A DNA stretch of 64,000 bases from a virus (IMGVR_UViG_3300005544_000022:7140-71139), one strand, 5' to 3'. Shown: positions 10,315 to 38,029, counted from the stretch's first letter. Notes: generated by a model from the sequence alone, not told the origin. Numbers and translations are program-made.

Positions 10315-10409
10315 AATAGGGGTCCGAGCCCGCAGGCCGAGAGCTCCCCGGCCACTAACTCGTGATGGGGGCTTGGGGTAACGGTGACGCTACCGCCCCG
10401 CTAGAAGTA

Positions 10410-10451: not shown

Positions 10452-10550
10452 CGTTGCACCCGCGCCGTCAACCCCTTGCGCGTCACAGGAGCATCATAAC
10501 ACTAGCCTAACCATGCCTGATCGTCAACCTAAACTGAGGGAGAACTAGCT

Positions 10551-10886: not shown

Positions 10887-11447
10887 GCGATAGGCAATAA
10901 GGGTCGAGGACCCCTTGCCGCCCCCGACTGGCAACTGGCACTAGTACTGCACTAGGGCTGGTTATCAGCAAGGTAAAGCAACAACCCAGAGGGTTAGATA
11001 TAGATTGTTGCTGTCAGCGTAACAGGTATTGCAGCGACCATTTGCAGGCACCGTGTTTGTGTGGCCGGTGAACGCCACCGCCCCCTACTGTCGTCGGGGT
11101 TTGGATTAGCATCGATCTGCAGCTACTTGGCGCTTGCTAGCCATTTCGCACCAGATCGATCAGTGTAGAACTGCTGTGTATACCCTTAGCCCTGTCAAGC
11201 ATCGGGTAGGTCGGGTCAGGCCCGGTCGCATTAGGCTTTGGCGAAGCCGTGGTCTTTCATTGTTGTGCGGTGAAAGGTCAAGTTCCGCTGAAGCATCATC
11301 AGGCCGTAGTCGCTAGGCAGTAGGCGATGGAGGTCACGCTTCAACACCACTCCAATCTTTAACAAGCTCGATCAGCTATTAGCTGGGCTCGCCTAGCAGG
11401 TACAACATACTGATGGTCTGGCTTCTAGTCAAACCATCAGCAAAACC

Positions 11448-11454
11448 CGTATGT
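11448..11454 (+). promoter_or_regulatory. CGTATGT putative phage promoter element
   Basis: Intergenic; preceded by an 8-bp hairpin (11410-11440) and followed by a GC hairpin. Confidence 0.5.
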
Positions 11455-11503
11455 AATCAACAGCGCACCGCGCGGGGTAATACACCGCGCTGCCTTATAA
11501 ACC

Positions 11504-18125: not shown

Positions 18126-18767
18126 ATGCAAACCATCGAAGGTATACATTTCCCCCAGCCGGTGCTGGATCACTTGAATGCGATTGCGCCGACGTGGGCG
18201 CAGACGTTAATTGACCGAGCGTGGATGGCTTATATCGCTATGGAGAAAGCCCTCAACCACGCCGTCGAGCGGAATGAAGTCAAAACCCTGCTCGACATAG
18301 GTGCTGACGCCGGCATGATTGATATTCTGCTAGGCGCCACCTCACAATTCCCCCGACTGACCGACATTTATTTGCTTGACGGCGATGGCACAAGCACGCG
18401 CCTCAGTGAGAAGTATAGCGCAGAGCAGGTAGCCTGGAACAATGTGCATATGGGCGTCGAGTTGGTGAAGGCCAACGTTAATTCCAACATTGCCGTGCAT
18501 GCTGTGAAGCCAGACCCGAGCTTGATATTGCCCCAAGCCATGGATGTGATACTCAGCCTCAAGTCGTGGGGGCATCACTACCCCGTCGAGGTGTATCTCG
18601 AGTTCGTGAAGCATAACTTGGCTGCAACCGGCGTCGTGCTGCTTGACATCCGCGAAAACACCAACGGCCGCCAAGTGCTAGAGGCTAACGGCTTCAAGGT
18701 AGTCGAGTTGATACCAGATAGGTCATCAAAGTGCCAACGTATGTTATTGAAGAGAGGGCAGTCATGA
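18126..18767 (+). CDS. class I SAM-dependent methyltransferase (paralogue 2 of 3)
   Basis: LLDIGADAG, YLLDGDG, SLKSWGHHYP, DIR. Confidence 0.8.
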   Translation: MQTIEGIHFPQPVLDHLNAIAPTWAQTLIDRAWMAYIAMEKALNHAVERNEVKTLLDIGADAGMIDILLGATSQFPRLTDIYLLDGDGTSTRLSEKYSAEQVAWNNVHMGVELVKANVNSNIAVHAVKPDPSLILPQAMDVILSLKSWGHHYPVEVYLEFVKHNLAATGVVLLDIRENTNGRQVLEANGFKVVELIPDRSSKCQRMLLKRGQS

Positions 18768-18996: not shown

Positions 18997-19254
18997 ATGT
19001 CAAGATACCTTTACCCTCGTGAGGAGCGAGGCACTAACGTCGAGCTACCTTCGACTATCGCTCAATGGAGGGCTAACATCGCCTACCGCTGCAAGCTGCG
19101 TGACACAGTAGTCTGGACCAATACAAAGATCGAACCAGATGACGTACCTATCACGCGGGTTGAGTTGTTCAAATTCAAGATCGTGAAGCCTGCAGAACCT
19201 ACCAATTCATGGAGCTTGCAGCGATGCGGATCACCTGGACTGAAAAGTCAGTAG
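18997..19254 (+). CDS. hypothetical protein
   Basis: ORF 18901..19254; RBS aagggg before ATG 18997. Confidence 0.5.
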   Translation: MSRYLYPREERGTNVELPSTIAQWRANIAYRCKLRDTVVWTNTKIEPDDVPITRVELFKFKIVKPAEPTNSWSLQRCGSPGLKSQ

Positions 19255-19859
19255 AGTATTTGAACCGGCACAACAAGCAGGGCGACGATAACTTTGCCCT
19301 GTTCGCCAAGCAGCAGATCAGAGCTCAGAAGCGCCTCGATGACATAGCTCGGGTCGTCGATGAGTGGAGGCCAACCCGCTCGCTCGACATCGGGTGCGGG
19401 CTGGGTGTGATTGATATCCTGCTGGCCGAGCGCTACAATCTGGCTCACATTCACTTGCTCGACGGTGACGGTAGCAGCCCCATCCAGCACGACTATCAGA
19501 CCGATATGCAACCGTGGAACGACGTGTTTGCGGCAGCCGAGCTTGTGCAGAAAAACGTAGGTAAGGACGTCGTGGTTTACCCGCACTTGGTAGTGCCGGC
19601 GAGCGAGTCCATGGCCGCAATGGCCAAGGAAATTGGCGAGCTGGACATGGTGTGCAGCTTCAAGTCGTGGGGCGTCCACTATCCTGTCAGCACCTACCTG
19701 CAATTCGCGCATGAGGTTTTGCGGCCTGGGGGTTTGCTGGTCATCGACATTCGCGAGGAGCGTGGCGATGGCGACAAGAATAACCAAGTCGAGCAAGCTG
19801 GCTTTCGGCTCGTGAAGCAGTTGGACGCGCGAGTTCGCACGTTCAGGAGAGGCATATGA
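19209..19859 (+). CDS. class I SAM-dependent methyltransferase (paralogue 3 of 3)
   Basis: SLDIGCGLG, HLLDGDG, SFKSWGVHYP, LRPGGLLVIDIR. Confidence 0.85.
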   Translation: MELAAMRITWTEKSVEYLNRHNKQGDDNFALFAKQQIRAQKRLDDIARVVDEWRPTRSLDIGCGLGVIDILLAERYNLAHIHLLDGDGSSPIQHDYQTDMQPWNDVFAAAELVQKNVGKDVVVYPHLVVPASESMAAMAKEIGELDMVCSFKSWGVHYPVSTYLQFAHEVLRPGGLLVIDIREERGDGDKNNQVEQAGFRLVKQLDARVRTFRRGI

Positions 19860-19996
19860 GGCTGAGCCCAAAGCAAGAAAAAGCACTGCTGCGAATGCTC
19901 CAGAAGTTTGTGGCTGGTGTGGACGATGTTGCTGATCGTCGCGAGCTGGTGCAGTTGATGACAGCGCTTGAAATCAAACTTGGATTAGACAGATGA
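19856..19996 (+). CDS. hypothetical protein (46 aa)
   Basis: Translated by hand; ATGA overlaps at both ends. Confidence 0.5.
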   Translation: MRLSPKQEKALLRMLQKFVAGVDDVADRRELVQLMTALEIKLGLDR

Positions 19997-20883
19997 AAGT
20001 CGGCTTCTTTTGCTCGAAGCGCGCTCGCTGCATTGAGTTTGCAGAACTGTTTCGAGCGGGCGTGCAGCGGCGCGGCGACGAGTTAGATATCAGGCCGGTA
20101 CTGAAAGCGCATGGCGACCCACATGAGGTTGATGGGGAGATAGTGCCTGATGTGGATGTAGCGGTTATCAACGCCATTCTACATCGCAAAGCCTTCAAGA
20201 CTATGTACGATGCCGGCATTCCAGTTGTATATATCGACAAGGCTTATAATCGGGATTGGAATTGGCGTCGTACCAGCATTGGCGCGCACCAGCCGACGCA
20301 CTACCTGGGCTTCAGAAACAAGCTGTCTGGCCGTCGCGTGCAGTTCGGGTGGGAGCCTGCAACATGGCGGCGCAAAGGCGCTCATGTGTTGCTGGCGTGG
20401 TCGGATAACCGTGACCACGAGTGGCGGGGTTGGCCTAAGCCAGAGGAGCACGTCAAGCCGGTCATCGCTGGCTTGCGGCATTTCACCGGCCGCAAACTCT
20501 ACTACAGCGCCAAGCCCAATTATGCGACTGGCGAGCCCGTGCATGGGCTGATTGATGTCTTCAATCTACTGCCCGGTACGCGAGTAACCAGTTTCTTCAC
20601 GGGCTGTCATGCGCTGGTAACTCCGGGCACCAGCGTTTGCTTGCATGCCTTGCTGGCAGGGATACCAACTATTGTGCTGGCCGATGCGCTGGTGCGTAAT
20701 ATATCCTCTACATGCATTTGCCAAATAGAGAGCCCATACCTAGCAACCCATCAAGAGCGCATTCAGCTACTCAATGATCTGGCTTATTGTCAGTGGCATA
20801 AGGGAGAGTTTGCCGATGGTACAGCTTGGCTCGATATTCGTGAACAGCTAGCGGAAGGGGTAGGGATCAATGTCAAATCGTAG
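19993..20883 (+). CDS. GT-B-like protein resembling KpsS/KpsC capsule-synthesis glycosyltransferases (paralogue 1 of 3)
   Basis: IDKAY..., HQP, ALVTPGTSVCLHALLAGIPT, RIQLLNDLAYCQW..GE; family link is by recalled resemblance only. Confidence 0.55.
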   Translation: MKVGFFCSKRARCIEFAELFRAGVQRRGDELDIRPVLKAHGDPHEVDGEIVPDVDVAVINAILHRKAFKTMYDAGIPVVYIDKAYNRDWNWRRTSIGAHQPTHYLGFRNKLSGRRVQFGWEPATWRRKGAHVLLAWSDNRDHEWRGWPKPEEHVKPVIAGLRHFTGRKLYYSAKPNYATGEPVHGLIDVFNLLPGTRVTSFFTGCHALVTPGTSVCLHALLAGIPTIVLADALVRNISSTCICQIESPYLATHQERIQLLNDLAYCQWHKGEFADGTAWLDIREQLAEGVGINVKS

Positions 20884-21573: not shown

Positions 21574-21678
21574 GTGGCAAGCGCAATGACGTATGCACAA
21601 GGCTGGATCATCATCGGTGAGCTTGCCTTTGTCATCCTTCTGATCATTTATAACATCGGCATCGGAGGCCCTCAATGA
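21574..21678 (+). CDS. 34-aa membrane peptide
   Basis: Translated by hand; RBS aggag; ATGA overlap with the oxygenase. Confidence 0.45.
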   Translation: MASAMTYAQGWIIIGELAFVILLIIYNIGIGGPQ

Positions 21679-22367
21679 TTACGGTAACTCAAACCGAGCT
21701 CTATGCTCATGTGTGCGGCGGGGTTCATGGGGCGAAGTTGTCGGCCTATCCATTCACGCACATCAGCATGAGGAACTTCCTGCCGCAGTTTCTGTACGGG
21801 CGGCTTATCAATTCACTGCCGGCGCCCGAGCTCTACACCCCGTTGAGCGACACTCGCGCACAATTCATATTCACGCCCGAGAACCAAGCGAAGCTGCCGG
21901 CCGATACGGTCGGAGTTTGGATGGACCTGCTCAAAGTGTTCAATGAGATTGGGTTCAAGCAAACCATGTTCAACAAGCTGGCCAGCGGGTTGAAGCATCG
22001 TTTTGGCGATCAGACCCTCGACGACATCGACTGCGATATGGATATCAGATTGATGCGCGATACGGCCGGCTACTTCATTGCACCACATTGCGATACTATG
22101 AAGAAGATAATCACGATGCAAATCTATCTGCCGGCCACAGTTCGTCACATCGACAGCGGTACGATCATGTACAAGAAAGATGCAACAAACGACGGTATGT
22201 TTGTCGAGGTAGTGCGTTTTCCTTACGTGCCAAATTTCAGCTATGCATTCGTCGTCAACAATAAGGAGCCTCACCAAAGCTGGCACGGGGTTGAAACCCT
22301 GCCACCTGACTTTCCCGGCGCGCGCAATAGTCTGCTCGTGATGTTCAATGCTGTAGGTGGTAAATGA
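21675..22367 (+). CDS. 2OG-Fe(II) oxygenase (prolyl-hydroxylase-like DSBH fold)
   Basis: IAPHCD (HxD at 22086), ITMQIYLP, SWHGV (distal His), ARNSL (2OG-binding Arg). Confidence 0.8.
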   Translation: MITVTQTELYAHVCGGVHGAKLSAYPFTHISMRNFLPQFLYGRLINSLPAPELYTPLSDTRAQFIFTPENQAKLPADTVGVWMDLLKVFNEIGFKQTMFNKLASGLKHRFGDQTLDDIDCDMDIRLMRDTAGYFIAPHCDTMKKIITMQIYLPATVRHIDSGTIMYKKDATNDGMFVEVVRFPYVPNFSYAFVVNNKEPHQSWHGVETLPPDFPGARNSLLVMFNAVGGK

Positions 22368-23236
22368 AATTCGCCTATCATCTGCGAGGCGAACGCCCTC
22401 GACAGAAGCAACTGTGTACTGCATTGCAAGCCGGCGCTGCCAAGCATGGGGATGAGGTGATCCCCATTGTCGGCTACTTAGGCCCAGAGCCTAGCGTCGA
22501 TGGCGTGATACTGCTAGGCGTCAGCGGCCTTCATCACAGAATAAGCAACCGCATGGTGTACGACGCTTATCTTGCCAAGGGTAAGCGAACGATGCTGTTC
22601 GACAAGGGCTATGTGCGGAAGGACAGTAGCGACCGCGACTACTTGCGGGTGTGCGTCGATGGGTTCCAGCCACTCAGCTACTTCATGAACACGACTAGAC
22701 CCAATGATAGATTTGAGCAGTTGGGTATCAAGCTCAGGCCCTATGCCACCAAAGGCGATTACTTCTTGCTAGATGGTGTCAGTCAAAAGTACTGCGCTTG
22801 GCACGGCATCGACAGTCACCTTGCCTGGGGCTTGAGCGTAATTGAGAAGATCAGGGCACACAGCAACCGCCCCATCGTTTATCGGCTGAAGAAATCAGTA
22901 GCGAACTACAAGGCTCTACGTGATATGCTGCGCACGACCATATCGAAGCGTGATCTAGCCGACGATATGAAACGCGCCATGATCGTCATCAGCCACGGCG
23001 GCAATCTGGGTTGGGATGCCATGATGAATGGTCGTGCTCACTTCGCCATCGGTCCGAGCATTGCTAGAAGTGTCAGCGAAACCGACTGGGCCAAAATTCA
23101 CACGCCGTATGTACCTAGTGAGGCAGAGCGCTATCAGTTGATGTGCAATGCTGCGTACTGTCAATGGACCGTAGCCGAGCTTGCAAGCGGCGAAGGGTGG
23201 GCAGTCATCAAACAGCAGCTAGAGGAAACCAAATGA
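22364..23236 (+). CDS. GT-B-like KpsS/KpsC-type protein (paralogue 2 of 3)
   Basis: FDKGY, DGFQP, VISHGGNLGWDAMMNG, RYQLMCNAAYCQWTVAELASG. Confidence 0.55.
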   Translation: MKFAYHLRGERPRQKQLCTALQAGAAKHGDEVIPIVGYLGPEPSVDGVILLGVSGLHHRISNRMVYDAYLAKGKRTMLFDKGYVRKDSSDRDYLRVCVDGFQPLSYFMNTTRPNDRFEQLGIKLRPYATKGDYFLLDGVSQKYCAWHGIDSHLAWGLSVIEKIRAHSNRPIVYRLKKSVANYKALRDMLRTTISKRDLADDMKRAMIVISHGGNLGWDAMMNGRAHFAIGPSIARSVSETDWAKIHTPYVPSEAERYQLMCNAAYCQWTVAELASGEGWAVIKQQLEETK

Positions 23237-26608: not shown

Positions 26609-27244
26609 ATGAACGTTTATGACGAACTGACTGGCGCCGTGAAACTCAGTCAGAAGAAGGGCGAAGCCGATCAGGCGCACTTGAGGAAACTGGTCGAAAA
26701 GGCTAGCGAGCTATCCGACAAAGCGTGGGAAGGCTTGTCGGGCAAAGCGCAGACTTGGGTGAACTCGGCGGTCGATGCCGTGCAAGCTCAAGAGGACATT
26801 CCCGAACCGGCCGGCTTTGGCCAGCCCGACGATGACGACGAGGTTGAGGAGGAGCAGGAGACTGTTGAAGCTGCCGACGATGACGATGACGTACCCCCAA
26901 GCAAAGGAGCTAAGACTGTGAAAGCCAAGGAAGCGAAGAAGGCTAAGGGCAAGCCGGCAAAGGCTGCTAAGGCTGCCAAGGGCAATGGTAAGGCGAAGGT
27001 TGCTGCCAAGAAGAAAGAGGGCGGCGCCAAGCGTGGCCGGGCAGCTCGCCTGTTCAAAGACGATCAGCGCATCACCGTGCTCAGCAAGAAGAACCCCAAG
27101 CGTGAGGGCAGCGGCGGCTACGAGCGTTTCGAGCTCTACTCCACCGGCAAGAAGGGCATGACTGTCAAGCAAGCGCTCGATGCCGGCGTGACCAGCGGCG
27201 ACCTGAAGTGGGACAGCGAGCACAAGTTCATCAAGATCGACTGA
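26609..27244 (+). CDS. hypothetical protein with acidic then basic low-complexity linker (putative DNA-binding)
   Basis: RBS aaggag; folded N- and C-terminal parts (NPKREGSGGYERF..Y...MTV...DL.WD) flank D/E- and K/A-rich tracts. Confidence 0.75.
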   Translation: MNVYDELTGAVKLSQKKGEADQAHLRKLVEKASELSDKAWEGLSGKAQTWVNSAVDAVQAQEDIPEPAGFGQPDDDDEVEEEQETVEAADDDDDVPPSKGAKTVKAKEAKKAKGKPAKAAKAAKGNGKAKVAAKKKEGGAKRGRAARLFKDDQRITVLSKKNPKREGSGGYERFELYSTGKKGMTVKQALDAGVTSGDLKWDSEHKFIKID

Positions 27245-27289: not shown

Positions 27290-28177
27290 GTGAAGCCATC
27301 ACTGTATGAAGGACACAAGATGATAGAACTACCCCCTAAAAACGTTGCAGCCCTATGCAAGTTCATGATCGAGCGGCAGCGTATCCACACTCGTCGCTAC
27401 TTGGGCAAGCCGAAGCCCTGGACCAGTGACCCGATATTGCAACAGTACCGGTTCTGCAACATTTACCGTGAGCAGGATAAGGTCACTAAGTGGATCGCCT
27501 ACAACTGGCGCGACCCGAACAACATGCATATAGACTTGTGGTTTGCTATGCTAGTCGCTCGCTACATCAACGAGCCCGGTACGCTCAAGCTGCTACCGTT
27601 CCCCTTGCCTTGGAACCGGCTCAACTTTCACGATGCCGTGAATGCTCGCAAGAGTGCTGGACTTACGGTGTACAATGCGGCATATATCATTTCGACTGGA
27701 GGTCAAGCCAAGCCGAAGCACGAGTACCTGGGCAACTTCTTCGACAAGTTTTGGTGGATGAGAAAGCAAATTCGCCCACGCGAAGGCGATACCCTGGCCA
27801 ATTTCAGCGAGCGGCTGGTGGCGGTGCAGGGCATGGGTAAGTTCTTCAGCGGGCAGATCATCGCTGACGTAAAGTATGCTGAAGGCAGCACCTTGCGCAA
27901 AGCCGACGACTGGTGGACATTTGCCGTGTCAGGCCCCGGCTCGAGACGTGGCCTCAACCGGGTTTGCAACAACCCCGTCGATCAGGGTTGGAATGAGGGA
28001 GATTGGCATGCACACCTCAGTACGTTACGTCGTGCGGTCAATAAGGAAATCACATCGAAGGGCTTGGAGAAGCTGCATGCACAAGATCTACAAAATTCGC
28101 TATGTGAGTTTGACAAGTATCTGCGAGTCCAAAACGGTGAAGGGCGCCCTAAGCAAAAGTACGATGGTATGGCGTAG
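27290..28177 (+). CDS. aGPT-Pplase1 family (5-hmdU DNA kinase helical domain) protein, stand-alone; likely start 27320
   Basis: PWTSDPILQQYRFCNIYREQDKVT, AAYII, HhH-like QGMGKFFSGQIIAD, GPGSRRGL, QNSLCEFDKY; no Walker A. Confidence 0.85.
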   Translation: MKPSLYEGHKMIELPPKNVAALCKFMIERQRIHTRRYLGKPKPWTSDPILQQYRFCNIYREQDKVTKWIAYNWRDPNNMHIDLWFAMLVARYINEPGTLKLLPFPLPWNRLNFHDAVNARKSAGLTVYNAAYIISTGGQAKPKHEYLGNFFDKFWWMRKQIRPREGDTLANFSERLVAVQGMGKFFSGQIIADVKYAEGSTLRKADDWWTFAVSGPGSRRGLNRVCNNPVDQGWNEGDWHAHLSTLRRAVNKEITSKGLEKLHAQDLQNSLCEFDKYLRVQNGEGRPKQKYDGMA

Positions 28178-28266
28178 CTTTTCAATTGAAGATCGAACGT
28201 GCGCCATCGGCGTAGTATTCTGGTTGTGGAGCTCGATCGGTTACTTGGCCGGTCAAGTGGGGTAGA

Positions 28267-29127
28267 ATGGACCTGATCGTAATACCTACTCGGGGGCGAG
28301 CGAAGCGGCAGCAAACTTTGGCTACCCTCGAGAAGACAGATGTTGTGTACACCCACAAAGTAGTTCTACTTGTGCGGCCTGAGGAAGTGACAAAGTACCG
28401 TCACCCAAGCTATAAAGGCAAACGCATTAAGTCAGCGACTATGAAGGAGATTGACGTGGTGGCAGTGCCAGAAGACTGCGAAGGTATAAGTAAGAAGCGA
28501 GCCTATGCCTTGACCACGCTGGCAAAGCAATACGACGCCAAGTATCTAATGATGCTCGATGATGACCTGTCATTCTGTCATCGGCCTGATTTGCGTAAGG
28601 CAGATATGCCTTATATCAACGCTGACGCTTACGGCATGCATTGGATGCTCGAAACTATCACCGAGCAATTAGAAAAAGGGTATGCTCATGTCGGGTTGAT
28701 TTCTAGGCAGGCCAACCGCAAGCTAGGCGTTAGGTGGCAGAAACCCGGTCGATTGATGAATGCCTATGCCTACAATGTGCCAATAATTTCTCAGCTAATA
28801 CGCAAGCACAAATTAGTGCTAGGTCGCTTGCAGTTCATGGAAGACTTTGATTTGACGTTACAGCTATTGCGCCTTGGTTATCCCAACCGCATCAGTTGCC
28901 GATTTGCCTGGACTACCACGTCAAACCTCGATGGAGGCTGTAGCACGTACCGCACTGCAGAAGCACAAGCTGAGGCCGCGCGTAAGCTGGCCAAGCTGCA
29001 TAAGCCTTTTGTGCAGGTAGTGGAAAAGCAAGCCAAGACCTGGAAGAACTCGTTGACTGCCCGCGTCGATGTGCGGGTAGCTTGGAAGAAAGCCTACGAG
29101 GCTAGTAAGGGAGGTAAACGTGGCTGA
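28267..29127 (+). CDS. GT-A glycosyltransferase, TAGT/GREB1-like family
   Basis: IVIPTRGRA, MMLDDDL (DxD), EDFDLTLQLLRLGYPN, TSNLDGGCSTYR. Confidence 0.8.
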   Translation: MDLIVIPTRGRAKRQQTLATLEKTDVVYTHKVVLLVRPEEVTKYRHPSYKGKRIKSATMKEIDVVAVPEDCEGISKKRAYALTTLAKQYDAKYLMMLDDDLSFCHRPDLRKADMPYINADAYGMHWMLETITEQLEKGYAHVGLISRQANRKLGVRWQKPGRLMNAYAYNVPIISQLIRKHKLVLGRLQFMEDFDLTLQLLRLGYPNRISCRFAWTTTSNLDGGCSTYRTAEAQAEAARKLAKLHKPFVQVVEKQAKTWKNSLTARVDVRVAWKKAYEASKGGKRG

Positions 29128-29329
29128 CACCGCGAAGGACTTTTCGCCGGCTGAGCGGGCGATACTACACAATCAGCAACTTCTCATGTTGGGCGTGACC
29201 AAGCTTTTGGTGGAGATTGGCTACAACGTACTGGCAGCCAAAATCCAAAGGGAGTTCATAACCGCGCCAGACTTTGTGGCGCTGGACGATACAGCTCGAG
29301 AGTTGGGGTTAAAGGGAGACGAGCAATGA
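29120..29329 (+). CDS. hypothetical protein
   Basis: RBS ggaggt; overlaps the GT stop. Confidence 0.55.
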   Translation: MADTAKDFSPAERAILHNQQLLMLGVTKLLVEIGYNVLAAKIQREFITAPDFVALDDTARELGLKGDEQ

Positions 29330-29562
29330 GCTTGAAGGATGATCTCATAAAACTGCGTGACCAGCTAGCCACGGATTACAATCATTGTACCGGCTTGCGC
29401 ACTATAGCTGCCGATGATCTCGTGCAAACATTAGGTGAGGTGGCGGCAGATATGCTGCCTGAGTTTGCTGCACTCGATGAAGCAGCGCAAGAATTCGCAT
29501 TGAACGAGGCGTGTCCAGAAGGTACCACTATAAGCTGTAGCCCCGTTCGCCTACTAGAGTAA
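29326..29562 (+). CDS. hypothetical protein
   Basis: ATGA overlap. Confidence 0.55.
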   Translation: MSLKDDLIKLRDQLATDYNHCTGLRTIAADDLVQTLGEVAADMLPEFAALDEAAQEFALNEACPEGTTISCSPVRLLE

Positions 29563-29580
29563 CCAGTACTCGGAGTACCC
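29557..29580 (+). repeat. 24-bp direct repeat, copy 1
   Basis: gagtaaccagtactcggagtaccc; 22/24 identical to 29902-29925. Confidence 0.75.
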
Positions 29581-29582
29581 CA

Positions 29583-29894
29583 ATGTCCAAGTCCAAAACA
29601 GTAATCAATGAAGGCTTTTGGAGTGCTTCTAATAAGCCTGTACCAAACAAAGAGCCTTGGCAGGGTCAAGCCCAGTTCTTGAGCAAGTTAAGAAGCGTTG
29701 AGGAAGCAGCTCATGTCATGCGCTATCGAGGCTTTTCAGTTTGCCGCGTATGCAGGCGGCCTAACGGGATAGAAGAGTTTTCGATTTCTTCTGACGATGT
29801 AACTGCGGTATGGCCCTCGGGATTTTCCCATTATATTTTAGCCCACAATGTCGAGCCGTCGAAAGCCTTCAAGGCTTTCATTCTAAGCTTCTAA
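29583..29894 (+). CDS. hypothetical protein (CxxC...HY..H)
   Basis: YRGFSVCRVC..PNG..EF....WPSGFSHYILAHNVEP. Confidence 0.65.
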   Translation: MSKSKTVINEGFWSASNKPVPNKEPWQGQAQFLSKLRSVEEAAHVMRYRGFSVCRVCRRPNGIEEFSISSDDVTAVWPSGFSHYILAHNVEPSKAFKAFILSF

Positions 29895-29901
29895 AGCAGT
29901 C

Positions 29902-29925
29902 GAGTAACCAGTAACCGGAGTACCC
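29902..29925 (+). repeat. 24-bp direct repeat, copy 2
   Basis: gagtaaccagtaaccggagtaccc. Confidence 0.75.
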
Positions 29926-29930
29926 TGTAA

Positions 29931-30593
29931 ATGAAACATGCTGATATCTATGGCAACGCTAGGTTTGCTGGTAGCATCAAGAGATACCACACTTGGCCGT
30001 TTATCTCTACGCAAACCGTGGGCGAGCACACGTGGCAAATCTTTCGCATCTACTACAGCATTTGGGGTGAACTTCCACCTCATGTGACGACAGCGATTAT
30101 CTGGCACGATGCCGGCGAGCTGTTCGCTGGCGATACGCCCTATCCAGCCAAAAAGGCTTCGCCGGGGTTACGTGGGTTGCTCAAAACTTTGGAAATTGAT
30201 GGCGTCGAGCAAATGGGCGGGCCGTGGAACGCCGATGGCAAGCTCACGACCCTTGAGCAAATCAAGATAAAGATTTGTGACAACCTTGACATGCTTGAGC
30301 ACGGCTTGGTCGAGATGGCAATGGGCAACCGCCTTATGGAACCCGTCGCCAACGTGACCTATGCGTGGCTCATTGAAACCCTCGATTGGGATAATGACGC
30401 GCTACCTCACCTCGATAAAGACTATGCCATTCGCTACCTGCTCAAAGTCCGTAAAGCGGCGCTAACGTATGGTATACCCAGCGAGGTTTTCATCATCGAG
30501 AAAAATATACCCCTCGCTGCTCAGCTGACCAAGCTGGCCGCAGTAACCAACCAGCCACCCGGAACCCCAGTCGTTTTGCCAGTCAACATCTAG
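29931..30593 (+). CDS. HD-domain nucleotide phosphohydrolase (YfbR-like)
   Basis: IKRYHT....QTVGEH, WHDAGE..AGD.PYPAK, CDNLD. Confidence 0.8.
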   Translation: MKHADIYGNARFAGSIKRYHTWPFISTQTVGEHTWQIFRIYYSIWGELPPHVTTAIIWHDAGELFAGDTPYPAKKASPGLRGLLKTLEIDGVEQMGGPWNADGKLTTLEQIKIKICDNLDMLEHGLVEMAMGNRLMEPVANVTYAWLIETLDWDNDALPHLDKDYAIRYLLKVRKAALTYGIPSEVFIIEKNIPLAAQLTKLAAVTNQPPGTPVVLPVNI

Positions 30594-30621
30594 CACTGCA
30601 CCAACCCCAGGAGTATAGACG

Positions 30622-31749
30622 GTGGATATCATCAAAGCTACAAACGTCAATGAGGCATATCTCAAAGGGCTGCACCTGCTTGCACACAAAGGCGTACCCG
30701 AGAAATCGCGCGCCGGCGACGTGCTGGTAGTTCCCAACCCGGTCGTCACGCAATACAACTACCCCATGGAGCGGGTGCTGTTCGACGTGACGCGCGATGC
30801 CAACCCCTGGTTTCATTTGATGGAAGCACTGTGGATGCTGATGGGCCGCAACGATGCCACTTGGCTGGACCGCTTCGTCAAGGACTACTCGAAGCGGTTC
30901 GCTGAGGATGATGGTACCCAGTGGGGCGCCTATGGCCAGCGGTGGCGCAGTCACTTTGCGTATACAGAAATTGATGAGGATACCGACCTACCCCTCGAGA
31001 CCATGATCGACCAGCTATCAGAAGTGGTCAGGCTGTTGGCCAAGAACCCCAACGACCGCCGCGTGGTGCTGCAGATGTGGGACCCCGAGTACGACCTGAG
31101 CAAAAACACAAAGGATGTACCGTGCAACCTTTGCGTGCTGCCGCGCGTGGTCAACAAAAAGCTCGACATCACCGTTTTCTGTCGCAGCAATGATGCCATC
31201 TGGGGTGCGTATGGCAGCAACGCCGTTCACTTCAGCATTTTGCAGGAGTACCTTGCTCGGCGGCTGCACCTGGAAATGGGCACGTACTACCAGATCAGCA
31301 ACAACTTTCACGCCTATAAGGACGTGTTCGACGCCAAGACCAAGCATCTGATTATCGACCCCGCTGGGCCGACTGGGCCGGTGCCTACGCCAATAGGTAA
31401 GAGTGAGTTTGTGGTGGCGCCCGCTTGGCACACACCGGCCGATACGGTGAGATGCCCCTACTATGACACGGCGCATCCAACCCCCATCGTGACTTCTGGT
31501 GATACGTTCGACGATGACTTGATCCAGTTCTTCAGCGGTGAGCACCCGCCGATCAAGTACTATCACAACAGCTTTTTCTCTGAGATCGCCGTACCGATGT
31601 ACTACAGTTTCAAGGCGTGGCGAGATAAGGATTTGACTGACGCTTTGCGTTGGCTTACGCGCATGCCTGAGCCAAATGGCGATTGGCGCCTTGCATGCCA
31701 ACAGTGGTATGATCGACGCCGCTATGCTGGAACTAAGGTTCAAAGTTGA
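30622..31749 (+). CDS. thymidylate-synthase-superfamily enzyme, probable dUMP hydroxymethylase
   Basis: RRVVLQMWDP, DVPCN (catalytic Cys), RSNDAIWGAYGSNAVHF (Asn177-equivalent indicates dUMP), NNFHAY; C-terminal extension; neighbourhood. Confidence 0.8.
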   Translation: MDIIKATNVNEAYLKGLHLLAHKGVPEKSRAGDVLVVPNPVVTQYNYPMERVLFDVTRDANPWFHLMEALWMLMGRNDATWLDRFVKDYSKRFAEDDGTQWGAYGQRWRSHFAYTEIDEDTDLPLETMIDQLSEVVRLLAKNPNDRRVVLQMWDPEYDLSKNTKDVPCNLCVLPRVVNKKLDITVFCRSNDAIWGAYGSNAVHFSILQEYLARRLHLEMGTYYQISNNFHAYKDVFDAKTKHLIIDPAGPTGPVPTPIGKSEFVVAPAWHTPADTVRCPYYDTAHPTPIVTSGDTFDDDLIQFFSGEHPPIKYYHNSFFSEIAVPMYYSFKAWRDKDLTDALRWLTRMPEPNGDWRLACQQWYDRRRYAGTKVQS

Positions 31750-31751
31750 AC
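31738..31751. promoter_or_regulatory. palindrome GTTCAAAGTTGAAC (recurring operator-like site)
   Basis: Overlaps the TS stop codon; upstream of 31783. Confidence 0.55.
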
Positions 31752-31782
31752 CGGGGCTCTATCAACTAGTGGAGTTGAAACT

Positions 31783-32061
31783 ATGACGAACTACAAGCTA
31801 GTTCTGCTGACGGCAAGCATGAGCCTAGGCTTTGGCGCGCTGGTAGGCTGCGATAGTCGGTTCTGGCCTGACCCTGCTCGGGAGAAGCAGGAAAAGCAGG
31901 CCCAAGTAGTTGCCGGCCGTGACAACGAGGGTTTGAAGATACGAGTGGACGACCTCGACCATCGTGCTAGGGACGAAGCAACGGCGGTTGACAAACGCTT
32001 TAGGGAACTAGAGCGCCGCATCGAGCGATTGGAGCAGGGCTTGCCCGCAGTGCGCCAATAG
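31783..32061 (+). CDS. predicted lipoprotein with coiled coil
   Basis: Signal peptide with lipobox LVG-C; heptad-like C-terminus. Confidence 0.6.
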   Translation: MTNYKLVLLTASMSLGFGALVGCDSRFWPDPAREKQEKQAQVVAGRDNEGLKIRVDDLDHRARDEATAVDKRFRELERRIERLEQGLPAVRQ

Positions 32062-32074
32062 TTCGAAATTGAAC
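32061..32074. promoter_or_regulatory. palindrome GTTCGAAATTGAAC (recurring operator-like site)
   Basis: Exact reverse complement of the 14668 copy; starts in the stop codon of 31783. Confidence 0.6.
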
Positions 32075-32087
32075 GAGGGCTCCAGTT

Positions 32088-32312
32088 ATGAAGCGCTACC
32101 TTTGCTTTGCCGGATACAGCTATTACAGCGAGGGGGGCTTTCTCGATTGCTGTGGGTCAGCCTCAACCAAAATCAAAGCGGTAGAGATTTGCCTAAAGAA
32201 AGAGCAAGACTGGTGGCATGTCGTCGATACCAAAACCGGCAAGATCGTTGCAGGGGTTAGTGGAGACTATTGTGGTCAGCTGAACGATGCAACGCTGCTA
32301 TCATTCGTGTAA
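32088..32312 (+). CDS. hypothetical protein
   Basis: RBS gaggg; YLCFAGYSYY..GG. Confidence 0.6.
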   Translation: MKRYLCFAGYSYYSEGGFLDCCGSASTKIKAVEICLKKEQDWWHVVDTKTGKIVAGVSGDYCGQLNDATLLSFV

Positions 32313-32324
32313 AGAGGTAAGCAC

Positions 32325-32675
32325 ATGATAACCAGAAGAAAGCTACTGTACTGGCTCGGCCTAGCGCCGGCTGCTTCAATTCTGCCAGTCAACAAGTTCG
32401 GCTCGGCTAGCGCACTGTTCGACGGGCCAACTGAGAATATTGGCAAAACTATCCAATACGTTCAATATGTTGACCCTACTAAGTGGACTGTGCCTAAGGA
32501 TTGGAGTAAGGTTTACATTGACATTGAGTGCATAGGTTACGGGGGTGGGAATGGCGGTGGTGGCGGTGACGCAGCAAGAATGACGATGCGGCAAGCGTCG
32601 GGCGAAAGCAGCCCGATTGGTACTGGCGGTGCAGGCAGAAAGTTAGCCAAGGGAGAACCCGATGTCAGCGAATGA
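32325..32675 (+). CDS. Tat-like signal plus glycine-rich domain fragment
   Basis: MITRRKLL N-terminus; WTVP.....IECIGYGGGNGGGGG. Confidence 0.5.
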   Translation: MITRRKLLYWLGLAPAASILPVNKFGSASALFDGPTENIGKTIQYVQYVDPTKWTVPKDWSKVYIDIECIGYGGGNGGGGGDAARMTMRQASGESSPIGTGGAGRKLAKGEPDVSE

Positions 32676-33135
32676 TAGGCAGGTAGGTGGTAGCCACTAC
32701 AAAGGCGGTTACGAGCATTGGGATTTTGTGACCAACGTTGGTATGAGCTACTTGGGCGCGCAAGTTTGCAAGTACCTGAAGCGCTGGCGCGACAAGAACG
32801 GCCGCGAGGACGTCGAAAAGGCTGGGCACTTCCTCGACAAAATGATCGAGGTATCGCCCATTTTAATCATGCAAAAGCTGAATATACCGATAGACTACAT
32901 CAACGGCGAGCTAAACAGCTACTTGCACGCTAACGGTATCAAAGGCGAAGAAGCTGCCGTCACGTCTATCCTCGCGACATGGTCTAGCAAAGGCCACTTA
33001 CAAATGGCCAAATGCTATATCGAGACCTTGGTAATGAAGATACCCCAAGGGCACGCCACCATTAACCGTGGTGGAGGCGGTGGTTACGCTTCACGGCCCG
33101 ACAGCGATGAGAGCGTACATGGAAATAGATCGTGA
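32662..33135 (+). CDS. DUF3310 protein (T7 gp1.7-like, putative nucleotide kinase)
   Basis: QVGGSHYK, KYLKRWRDKNGREDVEKAGHFL. Confidence 0.8.
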   Translation: MSANDRQVGGSHYKGGYEHWDFVTNVGMSYLGAQVCKYLKRWRDKNGREDVEKAGHFLDKMIEVSPILIMQKLNIPIDYINGELNSYLHANGIKGEEAAVTSILATWSSKGHLQMAKCYIETLVMKIPQGHATINRGGGGGYASRPDSDESVHGNRS

Positions 33136-34222
33136 AGCATTGCTGGCGACAACCAAGGCCGCTAGCAGTGTGATGGCAGCCAATCATTCGGTCCCCATCT
33201 TCAGTAAAATTTGGCTGATGGAAAACCACGTGCTGGCGTTCAACAACACCAGCATGGTAATCCATATTCCAATCGACATGCCGGCACTGGGCGGCGTCGA
33301 TGGCAAGCTGTTGGCCCAGTTGCTCGACCGCTCGGGTGAGGAAACGGTCACTATAGAAGTCATCGACGGCAACAAGGCTCGGGTGGAAATCGGTCGCAGC
33401 AAGGCAACCCTGGCAGTGATGGACCCGACCGACTACGTGCATCAGTTGGCCAAGGTACCAGCACTCAATGGCACAGTGTCTATGCCCATAGTTGAAATAC
33501 CTTGCGAGCAACTGGGCGAAGAGATCGACCTGGGCGCCTTGCTCAACGTCGGCACCTTGAAGCATGAGCAGGATATAGCCTTCAGCTCGCTCACCCTCAA
33601 CGGCAAGGATGGCAAGCTGACCATGTACGCCAGCGACCGTGTAAGCATCAACCGCAGTATCCTCAGCCTCGACAACATCGAAGAGCCGATAACCCGGCTG
33701 GTGCCTATGGATTTCATGCGCACCCTCAAAAAGCTGTGGGATTTGTTCGGTGAAGGCATGTTGCATATTGACCCCAAGCATGTGCTGGTCAGTGTTGAGG
33801 ATGGGCCTACTTTCTATACTGCGGTTAACACGTCAGAAAAGCCAATCGACTTCAGGGCAGCAATAGGCCGGCTGTGGCCGAGCGGTAAGATTGATATCAA
33901 AACGCTCGTGCCGATACCTGACGACTTTTGGGATACCATCAAGCGCGCCAAGCTGTTCGCCAAGAGTGAACCTAACCTAGTCACCCTGATTGCTAGGCAG
34001 AATGAGCTTGAGGTTACGGCCGCGAGTGCCGAAGGCAACTTCAATGAGGTATTGGAGTTCGAGCACCCACCGCAAAAGATATCAGTCAGTTGTGATGATT
34101 TGCTTGACGCGGCCTCGCACGTTGATCGCATCTACTTATCCAGCAGCGGTGTGGCTATGTTCGGCCCGCGCAAGTTCAGCCGGTTTGTCGCCGGCAGAAC
34201 AACCTACAGTTCAGGAGGCTAG
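33119..34222 (+). CDS. dnaN: DNA polymerase III beta-like sliding clamp
   Basis: 367 aa from ATG 33119; IDREALL...SVPIFSKIWL, YASDRVSI (ATDGHRL-like), DFWDTIKRAKLF. Confidence 0.7.
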   Translation: MEIDREALLATTKAASSVMAANHSVPIFSKIWLMENHVLAFNNTSMVIHIPIDMPALGGVDGKLLAQLLDRSGEETVTIEVIDGNKARVEIGRSKATLAVMDPTDYVHQLAKVPALNGTVSMPIVEIPCEQLGEEIDLGALLNVGTLKHEQDIAFSSLTLNGKDGKLTMYASDRVSINRSILSLDNIEEPITRLVPMDFMRTLKKLWDLFGEGMLHIDPKHVLVSVEDGPTFYTAVNTSEKPIDFRAAIGRLWPSGKIDIKTLVPIPDDFWDTIKRAKLFAKSEPNLVTLIARQNELEVTAASAEGNFNEVLEFEHPPQKISVSCDDLLDAASHVDRIYLSSSGVAMFGPRKFSRFVAGRTTYSSGG

Positions 34223-34767: not shown

Positions 34768-35348
34768 TGCCTATCAATCGACGCGGCGTGCATATCAACT
34801 GGCATGGCAAGTACCTTAATGAGGAGGAAATTGCGGCCGACATGATAGCGAAGATCAGGGCTAACCCCGAAGGCGTCAAGGTTTGGCTTGATCCTGTTAG
34901 TTGGAAAATGCCTTATGGTGATTATAAGGAGCTGCCTCCACATGCCGGCGCCTTGATAAACGTCGGTATGCAAGTTCGCAACTACTATGGGCTTTGGCAT
35001 CCTGAGTGCCCGTATACCAAACCCGGCAGCGCTGATTTAGAAGTTAAAGATGGCATCATCACCGACCCAATGTTCCCCGACAACCTATCAATGCGCGTAA
35101 TCGAGCGAGTGCGTAAGGTATTCGCAGATGAGGCCAAGCACTCGAAAGAGTTACACATTGCTGACAATCATCCCCAACGATTAGGCTTTGCTTGGTGTGG
35201 TGCCCCGTTGTTAGATAACAAAATGCGAACCTTTCGCAACGTTGAGGAGGCTGCTCAAATCGGCCGTCGTGGTGGTAAAGATACTTTCATCGTTTGCACT
35301 CGTTGCCTTGAACGGGTCACGGCAGCGCTACGTCACGGGCACAACTAA
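34764..35348 (+). CDS. hypothetical protein
   Basis: Overlapping start and stop with neighbours. Confidence 0.65.
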   Translation: MMPINRRGVHINWHGKYLNEEEIAADMIAKIRANPEGVKVWLDPVSWKMPYGDYKELPPHAGALINVGMQVRNYYGLWHPECPYTKPGSADLEVKDGIITDPMFPDNLSMRVIERVRKVFADEAKHSKELHIADNHPQRLGFAWCGAPLLDNKMRTFRNVEEAAQIGRRGGKDTFIVCTRCLERVTAALRHGHN

Positions 35349-38029
35349 TGTCCTTCTTTCCTATACCTGAAAAGGTAAGCAAACAAACAGCGGCTAAAGC
35401 CGACATTAAGATGCTCCACACGTTGGAGTGTCAAGCTTGCCCCTTGTCACAGATCAAGGGTAACAAGCACCCCGACATGCCGGCAACGGGCGTCAGCAAC
35501 CCGATGGTCTACGCATTGGGTGAGGCCCCCGGCAAGGATGAGGATATACGCGGCCGGCAGTTCGTAGGCAAAAGCGGCCAATTGCTCAGGGACTTGCTCA
35601 TTGACATTATGGGCACCGATTACAAGAACTACTTTCGTTGGAATAACACCGTTCGCACCCGACCGATTGACAACGCCACACCGACTTGGCAGAGCATCGA
35701 GTGCTGCCGACCTAGCATCGTGAGGGATATCGAGCAAAGCAAGCCGAAGGCTATATTTGGATTTGGCAACATACCGCTGTCATGGCTCACGGGGTATTCT
35801 GGTATCTACGCCTATCGTGGCCGCCGCATGCCCGTCAAGGTAGGCACACACGTTTGCTGGTACTTCCCCATGCTGCATCCAGCGGCGATACTGCATGGCG
35901 TCAAAGGCTATGACCCCGACGACGATGACGATGGCAGTGATTACAATCAATCTGATCGCGAGTTCATCAATGAGGATCATCGCATACTCAAGTTCGATCT
36001 CATTAAAGCCCTGGCACTGCTCGACAAGCTCGGGCCACCTATGATCCATTCAGCCGACGATGCCTTGAGCGGCATTGATGTAATGGATAAGTGCGACGAT
36101 CAGGCCCTCGATATTATTGAAGAACAGTTGAAGCTGTACGGTTCGAAGGTAGTAATCGGCATCGACTACGAGACCGACGCACTGCGACCGTACAATCCCG
36201 ACCGGCGAATACTGACCGCCGCCGTCAGCGATGGGCTCGGCGCGATCACCATTCCATTCGATCACCCTGAAGCGAGCTGGACCCCCAAGCAACGCGAACG
36301 CCTCGACCGTATTTGGATTAACTTTCTCACCACGGCTACGGCCATCAAAGCGGTACACAACCTGCAATTCGAGCTGGAGTGGACTGGCCATCGGTTCGCC
36401 GGCGACTTGCTCAAAGCCGGTAGGTGGGAATGTACGATGGTTCAAGCGTCGATCATCGACCATCGCTATAAGGGCACCAAGCCAAGCCCGTTGTCGCTAG
36501 AGTTTCTGGTGCTGCAACACTTCGGCTTCAACCTGAAGAAGCTCGCAGCCGTCGAGCGTCACAACCTGATAAACACGCCGCTGCCTCACGTGCTCCAGTA
36601 CAATGGGCTAGATGCCAAGTACCATGCGTTGCTGTTCAAGCGTCAGCACGCAATCATAAGGAACGAGAACCTACTCGTTGCCTACAAGCTCGCCAGCCGC
36701 CGCGTGCCCACGCTGGTTATGAGCCAGCTCAAAGGCATTCCTGTATCACAAAAGCAAGTCGAGGTGCTGCACGCCAAGTACGCAGATCGCATTGAAACAA
36801 CCTCGAAGCAGATTGCCGTCAATCGTACCGTCAAGCGGTTCAAGCGAGACTATAAATTCGACTTCGACCCCGGCAAGCATTGCGTGAAGCTGTTTCACGA
36901 CATGCTGCAACGTAAGGAGTGCGAGGTATTCGACAAGAAGAAACGTGATGCCAAAACTTGGTGGGTAGGTGATAAGAAAGTTAACAAGATAAGCTGCGAT
37001 GAAGATGTGCTCAAGCAAATTGGCGGCGAGTTGCCAGAGCTAATCATTCGCTTGCGTAAGGCACAAAAGCGTATGGGCACTTACATTCTACCCATGCGCA
37101 CGGGCAGTGAAATACTTTGGCCCGGCAGCTATCTCCATCCAGTTTATAATCACACTTTCACCGATACTGGCCGGCTGAGCGCTGAAGAGCCCAACGTTCA
37201 GAACTACCCCAAGCGTGATGGCGAGGCCAAAGAGGTTCGCAAGGGCATCGTCGCTCGCAAGGGGCGCATGATTGTCGCCATCGACTACGGGCAAATAGAA
37301 GCCCGCGTCATCGCCATGTACACGAAGGATAAAACCTTCGTCAAAGCATTGTGGGAAGACTACGACGTTCATATGGAGTGGGCCGAGCGCGTAGCCTATG
37401 CGGTGCCGGGGCTAGTCGGCGGCAAGCAGTACCTTAAAGACAAACCCACGATGAAAAAGTTTCGCACGGGCATCAAAAACGAATGGACATTCCCACTGTT
37501 TTTCGGCGCCACGCTTGAGTCCGTTTGCAACTACCTCACTGAAGGTAATGACCACGACTGCAAGGTAGAACCCGGCCAACTCAAAAAGGTTCACAGCGAT
37601 TTCTGGAAGCAGTTCGGCGGCGTCAAGGTTTGGCAAGAAACCCTGCGCGATTTTTATGAGGAGCATGGGTATGTAGAAACCTTCACTGGCCGGCGCCGTC
37701 ACGGGCCTATGAGCTTCAACAAGCTAATCAATGCGCCCGTGCAGGGTTTCACTGCCGAGCTTGTGATGGACGGTATGTGCAGGTTAAGCGAAACAAACGA
37801 CCCGCTGCTGCACCCTGAAATTCAAATCCACGATGACTTGACGTGGGTGAGCGTGCCCGAAAACAGGGTAGATGAACTGGCCGACAAGGCGTTGGATGTG
37901 TTGCTCAACCCGCCCGCGCCGTTTATCGAGCATGTCAACGTGCCAATCACAATGGAGCTTAGCGTAGGCAAGAACTGGCTGGAAATGACCGACATAGGTG
38001 TGTTCAAGTCGAACGAGTGGAAGAGGTGA
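35348..38029 (+). CDS. polA: family A DNA polymerase with N-terminal family-4 uracil-DNA-glycosylase-like domain and 3'-5' exonuclease
   Basis: CQAC, GEAPG, HPAA (UDG); DYETD, HNLQFE, YNGLDA (Exo I-III); TGRLS..PNVQN, DYGQIEARV (motif A), QIHDD (motif C). Confidence 0.92.
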   Translation: MSFFPIPEKVSKQTAAKADIKMLHTLECQACPLSQIKGNKHPDMPATGVSNPMVYALGEAPGKDEDIRGRQFVGKSGQLLRDLLIDIMGTDYKNYFRWNNTVRTRPIDNATPTWQSIECCRPSIVRDIEQSKPKAIFGFGNIPLSWLTGYSGIYAYRGRRMPVKVGTHVCWYFPMLHPAAILHGVKGYDPDDDDDGSDYNQSDREFINEDHRILKFDLIKALALLDKLGPPMIHSADDALSGIDVMDKCDDQALDIIEEQLKLYGSKVVIGIDYETDALRPYNPDRRILTAAVSDGLGAITIPFDHPEASWTPKQRERLDRIWINFLTTATAIKAVHNLQFELEWTGHRFAGDLLKAGRWECTMVQASIIDHRYKGTKPSPLSLEFLVLQHFGFNLKKLAAVERHNLINTPLPHVLQYNGLDAKYHALLFKRQHAIIRNENLLVAYKLASRRVPTLVMSQLKGIPVSQKQVEVLHAKYADRIETTSKQIAVNRTVKRFKRDYKFDFDPGKHCVKLFHDMLQRKECEVFDKKKRDAKTWWVGDKKVNKISCDEDVLKQIGGELPELIIRLRKAQKRMGTYILPMRTGSEILWPGSYLHPVYNHTFTDTGRLSAEEPNVQNYPKRDGEAKEVRKGIVARKGRMIVAIDYGQIEARVIAMYTKDKTFVKALWEDYDVHMEWAERVAYAVPGLVGGKQYLKDKPTMKKFRTGIKNEWTFPLFFGATLESVCNYLTEGNDHDCKVEPGQLKKVHSDFWKQFGGVKVWQETLRDFYEEHGYVETFTGRRRHGPMSFNKLINAPVQGFTAELVMDGMCRLSETNDPLLHPEIQIHDDLTWVSVPENRVDELADKALDVLLNPPAPFIEHVNVPITMELSVGKNWLEMTDIGVFKSNEWKR

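Follow-up and report, generated by a model that had tools for sequence, protein, structure and literature searches.

A putative kinase-free gene cassette for glycosylated 5-hydroxymethyluracil in the DNA of an environmental phage lineage

Pseudomonas phage M6 carries its genes for thymidine hypermodification in the order amino-acid:DNA transferase (AADT; PF18724, formerly aGPT-Pplase2), pyridoxal phosphate (PLP) enzyme, radical S-adenosylmethionine (rSAM) enzyme, kinase, a PF18723 protein (here called Pp1), gp56, thymidylate synthase (TS) homologue and HD hydrolase, followed by a DUF3310 gene and the polymerase, and phage Pam3 has the same gene set. Glycosylated thymidine, with sugars on a C5 linker, is known in phages SP-15, YerA41 and Carin-5 (PMC13697223). 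Phage GT-A glycosyltransferases (GTs) of TET clusters glycosylate 5-hydroxymethylcytosine (5hmC) in DNA, resemble the base J glucosyltransferase (JGT) in fold and often co-occur with 'ThyS' genes (PMC8256090; bioRxiv 10.1101/2023.12.21.572611), and contigs with GT-A and ThyS genes have been surveyed earlier (bioRxiv 10.1101/2023.12.21.572611). Here we analyse a cassette at 27290-33135 of a 64,000-base window, which comprises bases 7140-71139 of the 71,139-base IMG/VR virus record IMGVR_UViG_3300005544_000022 (G000), and in which a GT-A glycosyltransferase accompanies a TS homologue and Pp1. On the sequence evidence set out below, we consider it fairly probable that this phage of ~110 kb builds its DNA with 5-hydroxymethyl-2'-deoxyuridine (5-hmdU) instead of thymidine and that the GT-A enzyme subsequently attaches a sugar to this base in the polymer.

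Nearly all genes of the window lie on the plus strand, and all those named for the cassette in the preliminary description were recovered in their places, on that strand, by Pfam and PHROG matches. Pp1 (27290..28177, +; HMUDK_hel, Pfam E 1.5e-43; the called product starts at 27320 and has 285 aa) is a stand-alone protein without a P-loop. It is followed directly by a TAGT-family GT-A glycosyltransferase (28267..29127, +; PF20691 E 6e-15; phrog_842 E 1e-38) and, further on, by an HD-domain 5'-deoxynucleotidase-like (YfbR-like) hydrolase (29931..30593, +; PF12917 E 6e-6; phrog_6047 E 6.5e-26; phrog_7076 E 3e-9), the TS homologue, a predicted dUMP hydroxymethylase (30622..31749, +; PF00303 E 7e-23; phrog_5131 E 4e-101), and a DUF3310 protein (32662..33135, +; PF11753 E 1.3e-5; phrog_5839 E 3e-28). 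Every function named in this text is a prediction based on homology, residue conservation, predicted folds and genomic context. M6 gp55 matches PF18723 (E 8e-56), gp51 matches PF18724 ('ADDT') and gp54 matches PF18748 ('5-hmdU DNA kinase'), while GenBank records of M6 relatives label the gp55 family 'aGPT-Pplase clade 1'; because gp55 bears both labels, the protein previously called aGPT-Pplase1 belongs to the Pfam family named 'helical domain of 5-hmdU DNA kinase'.

Compared with M6 by tblastn, the window matched gp55 with Pp1 (32% identity), gp58 with the TS homologue (39%, E 4e-74), gp61 with the DUF3310 protein (31%) and, weakly, gp59 with the HD hydrolase. These four proteins are homologous and syntenic with their counterparts in thymidine hypermodification of the M6, ViI, PaMx11 and PhiW-14 type, and likewise stand beside a family A polymerase; the systems would share one logic, in which 5-hmdU is provided ahead of replication so that post-replicative chemistry has a group to act on. 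In contrast to these phages, the window has no 5-hmdU DNA kinase (5-HMUDK), AADT, PLP, rSAM, flavin adenine dinucleotide (FAD) or acetyltransferase tailoring enzymes, and the GT-A enzyme stands in place of the kinase, AADT, PLP and rSAM genes of M6 and Pam3, so that the group added here should be a sugar, with no phosphate intermediate. The GT lies directly after Pp1, whereas in M6-type phages the tailoring genes are found on the other side of Pp1.

A closed relative allowed the missing genes to be sought beyond the window. This 109,752-base contig (G001) carries a TAGT 96% identical to that of the window and is collinear with G000 at ~72-95% nucleotide identity (about 90% overall), although circularly permuted. 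The first 149 bases of G001 are found again at its end with 99.3% identity, from which we take it as an effectively closed genome; its database class is 'linear, 85% complete'. G001 is thus probably a closed, circularly permuted genome; the record that contains the window represents 65% of a genome of this type, in permuted form. The portion of G001 that is absent from G000 encodes a dCTP-deaminase-like protein, a GIY-YIG endonuclease, an FkbM methyltransferase and a pair of DUF6716 putative glycosyltransferases; the rest of it is a long minus-strand block, presumably of structural genes. Megablast of the region against 50,697 phage records gave no match, indicating a lineage without a close cultured relative.

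Searches with M6 gp51-gp54 (tblastn) against the window and G001 found no AADT, PLP enzyme, rSAM enzyme or kinase. Six-frame Pfam searches likewise found no PF18724 in the 71-kb G000, in G001 or in a further five genomes with the cassette (100%-complete in three cases, two of those with terminal repeats), and no PF18748 at E <= 1 in G000 or G001, nor in the same five genomes. The earlier statement that none of these enzymes could be recognised in the window therefore holds, for AADT and kinase across the whole of G000, and neither aGPT-Pplase2 nor a kinase turned up in the remainder of the genome as represented by closed G001, or in three other complete genomes. The same description had allowed 5-hmdU phosphate as an alternative acceptor of the sugar, an option disfavoured by the lack of any detected kinase. 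Tet_JBP (PF12851) was absent from G001 and from five other genomes with the TS-linked cassette, so the reported lack of a TET enzyme also extends to the closed relative; PF18746 (aGPT-Pplase3), sought in G000 and G001, and PF18745 (SNAD2) gave no match, which is uninformative. A 211-aa gene just upstream of Pp1 (26609-27244) was considered as the missing kinase and ruled out, as its product has no similarity to M6 gp54 and is of low-complexity acidic and basic composition. The protein has an extended acidic stretch and, after it, a basic stretch rich in lysine and alanine, and its C-terminal 57 residues match a region upstream of Pp1 in the cultured phage PhiJL001 (E 1e-6).

The TS homologue aligns over its full length with Pam3 gp52 (44% identity), M6 gp58 (39%) and the SPO1-type enzyme (32%). 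In an alignment with Escherichia coli ThyA, T4 gp42, M6 gp58, Pam3 gp52 and SPO1-type and ViI-type enzymes, it keeps the equivalents of Cys146, Arg166, Asp169 and Tyr94, and has Asn at the position of E. coli N177, where the dCMP hydroxymethylase T4 gp42 has Asp. This Asn at the base-specifying position, present in the window and in all 58 cassette copies, distinguishes the cassette from the glucosylation of hydroxymethylcytosine in T-even phages. At the positions of ThyA H147 and W80 it has Asn and Ser, respectively, and the H147 to Asn change and the loss of W80 are common to SPO1-type, M6, Pam3 and ViI-like homologues and to 58/58 cassette copies. The sequence comparison supports the previous grouping of this TS-family enzyme, with its dUMP-specifying Asn, among the dUMP hydroxymethylases of hydroxymethyluracil (hmU) phages, and we predict that it yields 5-hmdUMP. 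Mutation of TS at the W80-equivalent position lets the exocyclic methylene intermediate escape, a behaviour that would agree with a hydroxymethylase reaction.

That the enzyme is instead a true thymidylate synthase of ordinary nucleotide metabolism, in a phage whose DNA has plain thymine, seems to us very improbable. Databases do label most of the homologues 'thymidylate synthase', and none of the catalytic residues Cys, Arg, Asp and Asn is lost; however, the closest relatives are the SPO1-type enzyme and the only genes of the TS family in M6-like and Pam3 phages, which have full T-hypermodification cassettes, and H147 and W80 of ThyA are missing just as in those homologues. The gene is moreover associated with Pp1, whose family is confined to hypermodifying phages (PMC5889632), and with an active-type fusion of uracil-DNA glycosylase (UDG), 3'-5' exonuclease and family A polymerase (UDG-PolA; 35348..38029, +; 893 aa; PF03167 E 5e-16; PF01612; PF00476 E 3e-44). 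The UDG domain of this fusion retains the family-4 motifs GEAPG and HPA, and active UDG-PolA fusions are typical of modified-thymine phages (PMC13697223, PMC10201439).

The TAGT protein scores 56.1 bits against PF20691, for which the curated cut-off is 27.5. Its AlphaFold2 model (mean predicted local distance difference test, pLDDT, 92.9) adopts a GT-A fold, with Foldseek matches to TarS, GnT-I, AvpGT, TarP and GalNAc-T2 (E 2e-6 to 5e-5). These PDB matches include no JGT structure, the likeness to JGT in fold being known from bioRxiv 10.1101/2023.12.21.572611 only. Among 38 homologues D98 and D99 are invariant, D100 is more than 90% conserved and ~30 further positions do not vary. A quick maximum-likelihood tree places the TAGT of the window in a well-supported 16-row clade, all members of which lie beside a TS homologue and Pp1. 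Tet_JBP was found in 4 genomes among those whose TAGT locus lacks the TS homologue, and three distinct TET-linked TAGTs nest among the TS-linked ones, which fits a single chemistry, the transfer of a sugar to a 5-hydroxymethylpyrimidine on DNA, whichever enzyme is the source of the hydroxymethyl group. We predict that the TAGT is a DNA (5-hmdU) glycosyltransferase. The cytosine systems of phages that pair TET (5mYOX) with a TAGT use the same PF20691 family and have their acceptor, a hydroxymethyl group, on the polymer, but there the group is made after replication by a dioxygenase acting on 5-methylcytosine or T, whereas here it would be made before replication on dUMP by the TS homologue, and the base would be uracil-derived. 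Base J of kinetoplastids, made by JBP1/2 and JGT, is likewise a glycosyl-oxymethyl-uracil in DNA, the predicted product class of the cassette; however, G001 has no JBP-type hydroxylase (no PF12851 match), and substitution here would be genome-wide and protective, whereas base J is a sparse epigenetic mark.

From these assignments a pathway can be proposed. Before replication, in steps drawn from homology, a dCTP-deaminase-like enzyme (seen in G001 just past the end of the window's contig) would supply dUMP or dUTP, the TS homologue would hydroxymethylate dUMP, the HD hydrolase would clear competing thymidine nucleotides (dTMP or dTTP-type) from the pool, and the DUF3310 protein may have a nucleotide-linked role. 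The latter matches phrog_236 'nucleotide kinase' (E 4e-14) in its DUF3310 part only, a domain that in other phages is fused to nucleotide kinases. UDG-PolA would copy the genome and remove stray uracil. After replication, as gene context suggests, the TAGT would move a sugar from a nucleoside diphosphate (NDP)-sugar onto the oxygen of the 5-hydroxymethyl group and so form a 5-(glycosyloxymethyl)uracil akin to base J, with no phosphorylation step; as no nucleotide-sugar genes were seen, we assume that the sugar donor is the host's. Seven further predicted glycosyltransferases and six methyltransferase domains could then extend and O-methylate the sugar. The preliminary description had placed the sugar on 5-hmdU, which agrees with the GT as the sole tailoring enzyme replacing kinase and transferase; the product may be a direct O-glycoside like base J or a sugar on a linker.

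To assess how common the cassette is, we scanned 80 IMG/VR loci with a TAGT relative using locally built profiles. Pp1 was present in 58/80 of them and the TS homologue in 59/80, with HD in 40/80 and DUF3310 in 46/80; since the set recurs in 58/80 independent viral loci, the grouping is far beyond chance. ADDT and kinase occurred together at a single locus of the 80 (L094, IMGVR_UViG_3300020576_001247), where a hybrid cassette (~4516-11800) holds ADDT, a P-loop 5-hmdU kinase, Pp1, TAGT, TS, HD and DUF3310; its genes might serve to attach an amino acid as well as a sugar, or to put a sugar on a group derived from an amino acid. Four metagenome contigs with TAGTs of 36-65% identity all carry PF18723, TAGT, Thymidylat_synt and PolA with or without UDG, and most have HD. 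The cultured PhiJL001, an Alphaproteobacteria phage of M6's virus family, carries the same cassette (gp19 Pp1, 29% identity; gp22 TAGT, 36%; gp24 TS, 40%; gp25 HD; gp26 DUF3310), adjoining PolA and a dCMP deaminase. It differs from the window's lineage in being a 63.6-kb siphovirus with a plain PolA, and has no large extra GT and methyltransferase set in the region examined. By its gene content, the cassette is a recurrent variant of known hmU-based hypermodification and not a one-off; it is widespread in IMG/VR and present in cultured PhiJL001, and its product chemistry is unreported in the literature that could be searched.

The AlphaFold2 model of Pp1 (pLDDT 95.9) is all-helical and resembles helix-hairpin-helix (HhH) glycosylases, the nearest folds being archaeal Ogg, AlkA and EndoIII glycosylases and the PaMx11 gp46 transferase (8z2n). 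Across 40 homologues ~40 residues are invariant, many of them charged, including C46 and an LCE..DKY motif. Profile-profile comparison (hhalign) with 35 AADTs gave E 0.0018 at a probability of 15%, with an HhH-like G-x-G...AD segment aligned and with Pp1 'QDLQNSLCEF' set against AADT 'QEVETILCKW', the cysteine of which is a validated nucleophile (PMC8989533, PMC11472151, PMC13458397). The same comparison with a 3-sequence AADT alignment was not significant, and the Pp1 profile searched against PDB sequences gave spurious pilin matches only. On this alignment the Cys motifs of Pp1 and the AADTs are likely homologous, and, because the LCE motif is kept in the Pp1 of both cassette types, Pp1 looks like an enzyme rather than a passive helical domain, one that probably attacks C6 of a 5-substituted uracil via its conserved cysteine (C262 of the 285-aa form). 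A further argument, in which the metal ligands of the AADTs would be missing from Pp1 (ET to QN), was dropped, as clade 1 members vary at these positions, with E-H or Q-N.

The distribution of Pp1 follows the hydroxymethylase and not the glycosyltransferase, as it is absent from TET-linked TAGT loci and present in M6-type cassettes. Two complete genomes, MW202897 (40 kb, circular) and G026 (50.7 kb, terminal repeats), contain GT, TS, HD and DUF3310 without Pp1, so that the GT is the sole recognised tailoring candidate of their cassettes and, by gene content, Pp1 is unneeded there. It is mainly for this reason that we prefer direct glycosylation of 5-hmdU over a route in which Pp1 acts first. 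In that alternative, which we regard as unlikely, Pp1 would put some small nucleophile, such as a polyol or an amino acid, in place of the hydroxyl group of 5-hmdU with no phosphorylation beforehand, and the TAGT and other GTs would glycosylate this linker, as in SP-15 and YerA41. The ~40 invariant residues of Pp1, the alignment of LCE..DKY with the validated catalytic cysteine of AADTs (PMC8989533, PMC11472151), the resemblance of its HhH-glycosylase-like fold to PaMx11 gp46 and its position beside the GT in 58/80 loci all speak for such a route. So does the finding that RP13, EP_H11 and IME92, phages grouped with SP-15 and YerA41, have a Pp1 gene and no detectable 5-HMUDK (PMC13697223). Features that the lineage plausibly shares with SP-15, YerA41, Carin-5 and this second group are a UDG-PolA fusion, a TS homologue, a dCTP deaminase, Pp1 without a kinase, and multiple sugars (PMC13697223); its genome is ~110 kb and its UDG-PolA, with UDG motifs intact, has 893 aa, compared with 1306 aa in YerA41 and ~1300 aa with three large insertions in the SP15-type enzyme. 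Against a linker stand the two complete genomes with GT and TS but no Pp1, the occurrence of Pp1 in M6-type cassettes, where gp55 is dispensable for the in vitro reaction (PMC8989533), the weakness of the Pp1-AADT profile match, and the fact that hydroxide is a poor leaving group for which no activating enzyme was found.

One idea for the role of Pp1 is that it may turn unmodified 5-hmdU into thymine. The DNA of PhiW-14, SP10, M6 and ViI ends as a mixture of T and hypermodified T, whereas SPO1 keeps hmU. The first four phages, all hypermodifying, are listed with Pp1 and SPO1 without it (PMC5889632). A rewriter of the C5 substituent would explain why Pp1 occurs in every hypermodifying hmU phage but not in SPO1. 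It is tempting to speculate, though we hold this combined picture only tentatively, that the cassette marks a widespread class of phage DNA in which every T is laid down as 5-hmdU and directly O-glycosylated, as a counterpart of base J in bacterial viruses, with a methylated oligosaccharide in this lineage, and that Pp1 is a kinase-independent, cysteine-dependent rewriter of the C5 substituent on the polymer, for example from unglycosylated 5-hmdU to thymine.

The lineage has a large additional set of putative sugar-modifying genes, totalling, beyond the TAGT, seven predicted glycosyltransferases and six methyltransferase domains. In the window these comprise two DUF6716-like putative GT paralogues (19993-20883 and 22364-23236, both +), recognised by paralogy to two PF20471 proteins of G001 (E 1e-10 to 7e-26), a fusion of a third DUF6716-like GT with a methyltransferase (52556-54082, +), in which the first 296 residues are paralogous to the G001 DUF6716 proteins, an FkbM methyltransferase (55190-55873, +), a GT8-like glycosyltransferase resembling viral GT8-like enzymes (56604-57380, +), and two paralogous class I methyltransferases with weak Pfam methyltransferase matches and 35% mutual identity (18126-18767 and 19209-19859, both +). 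The DUF6716-like family has five members in the lineage, three in the window and two in G001 (L005 10048-11924). Between the first two of those in the window lies a 2OG-Fe(II) oxygenase-like gene (21675-22367, +), a lead from an Atlas score of 0.94 to PF13640 clusters with no Pfam match, which points to prolyl-hydroxylase-type clusters and not to TET. YerA41 carries up to five sugars (PMC13697223), and here the extra GTs and methyltransferases may build a methylated oligosaccharide on the base. The genes invoked earlier for extension and methylation of the sugar are thus present and an extending role is plausible, although only the shared genome ties them to DNA.

Several observations weigh against glycosylated 5-hmdU as the product. 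The hydroxymethylase is predicted from homology and from residues in common, and the acceptor and the sugar purely from gene context. Pp1, which accompanies the GT in most loci, keeps its Cys motif, and the sugar may sit on a group that it installs; in the known glycosylated phage thymidines, those of SP-15 and YerA41, a linker bears the sugar (PMC13697223). The additional GTs and methyltransferases lie scattered through the genome and might act on something other than DNA. Finally, DNA of PhiJL001, the only cultured carrier, is reported with reference to its 2005 genome paper to be 'normally digested by restriction enzymes' (PMC4276943), which argues against a heavy, bulky modification in this phage. 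The last two points would also suit a phage whose DNA holds 5-hmdU, or 5-hmdU partly reverted to T, while the TAGT and other GTs act off DNA, on virion proteins or host envelope polymers; the additional enzymes are scattered among replication genes, and most GT-bearing viral contigs in the published survey are not beside base-modification genes (bioRxiv 10.1101/2023.12.21.572611). We nevertheless consider this quite improbable, as the GT clade is found repeatedly and tightly between Pp1 and the TS homologue, in 58-59/80 loci and with several polymerase types, its nearest relatives outside that context adjoin TET dioxygenases, and enzymes of the family have been shown to act on DNA (PMC8256090).

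Should direct glycosylation of 5-hmdU hold, glycosylated hydroxymethyluracil would be a common protective DNA chemistry of environmental phages, beyond kinetoplastids and a few jumbo phages, and there would be a one-enzyme route from 5-hmdU DNA to sugar-bearing DNA, of use for chemistry to map 5hmU and for restriction-resistant DNA. The kinase-free cassette would also provide a defined setting in which to find the role of the clade 1 'aGPT-Pplase' family, a question dating from 2013, and would single out phage genomes whose DNA standard sequencing may under-represent.

The remaining genes of the cassette region are small. Two open reading frames of 69 and 78 aa (29120..29562, +) without a Pfam or PHROG match and a DUF7919 protein of 103 aa (29583..29894, +; PF25535 E 5e-7) separate the TAGT from the HD hydrolase, the first two not figuring among the reading frames of at least 80 aa at the locus of the close relative, and three further open reading frames of 92, 74 and 116 aa (31783..32675, +), with no family match for the two scanned, follow the TS homologue. 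Downstream of the DUF3310 gene, a beta-clamp-like (DnaN-like) protein (33068..34222, +) has a weak PF00712 match under the Pfam cut-off (E 1.5e-4), and beyond UDG-PolA lie a clamp-loader ATPase, a gp32-like single-stranded DNA-binding protein, RecA, DnaB and other replication genes. Near the start of the window, a gene that joins an ArdC-N antirestriction domain to an MPTase-PolyVal zincin peptidase (1723-2688, E 9e-49) lies upstream of a UvrD-like helicase gene (6346-8250). The GIY-YIG gene of G001 is homing-endonuclease-like and sits between the dCTP deaminase and glycosyltransferase genes (L005 8552-9025).

Ralstonia phage RSL1 (L101, NC_010811.2 162908-177756) has three TAGT-like GTs beside a TS-family gene, together with an NDP-sugar pyrophosphorylase, a nucleotidyl transferase, an adenosine phosphosulfate (APS) kinase and a sulfotransferase, a set of genes that seems made for a sulfated and glycosylated pyrimidine in the DNA-modification repertoire of a jumbo phage. 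In L019, a radical SAM/SPASM gene (9863-10834) lies directly 3' of the TAGT in a Pp1-TAGT-HD-TS cassette with UDG-PolA.

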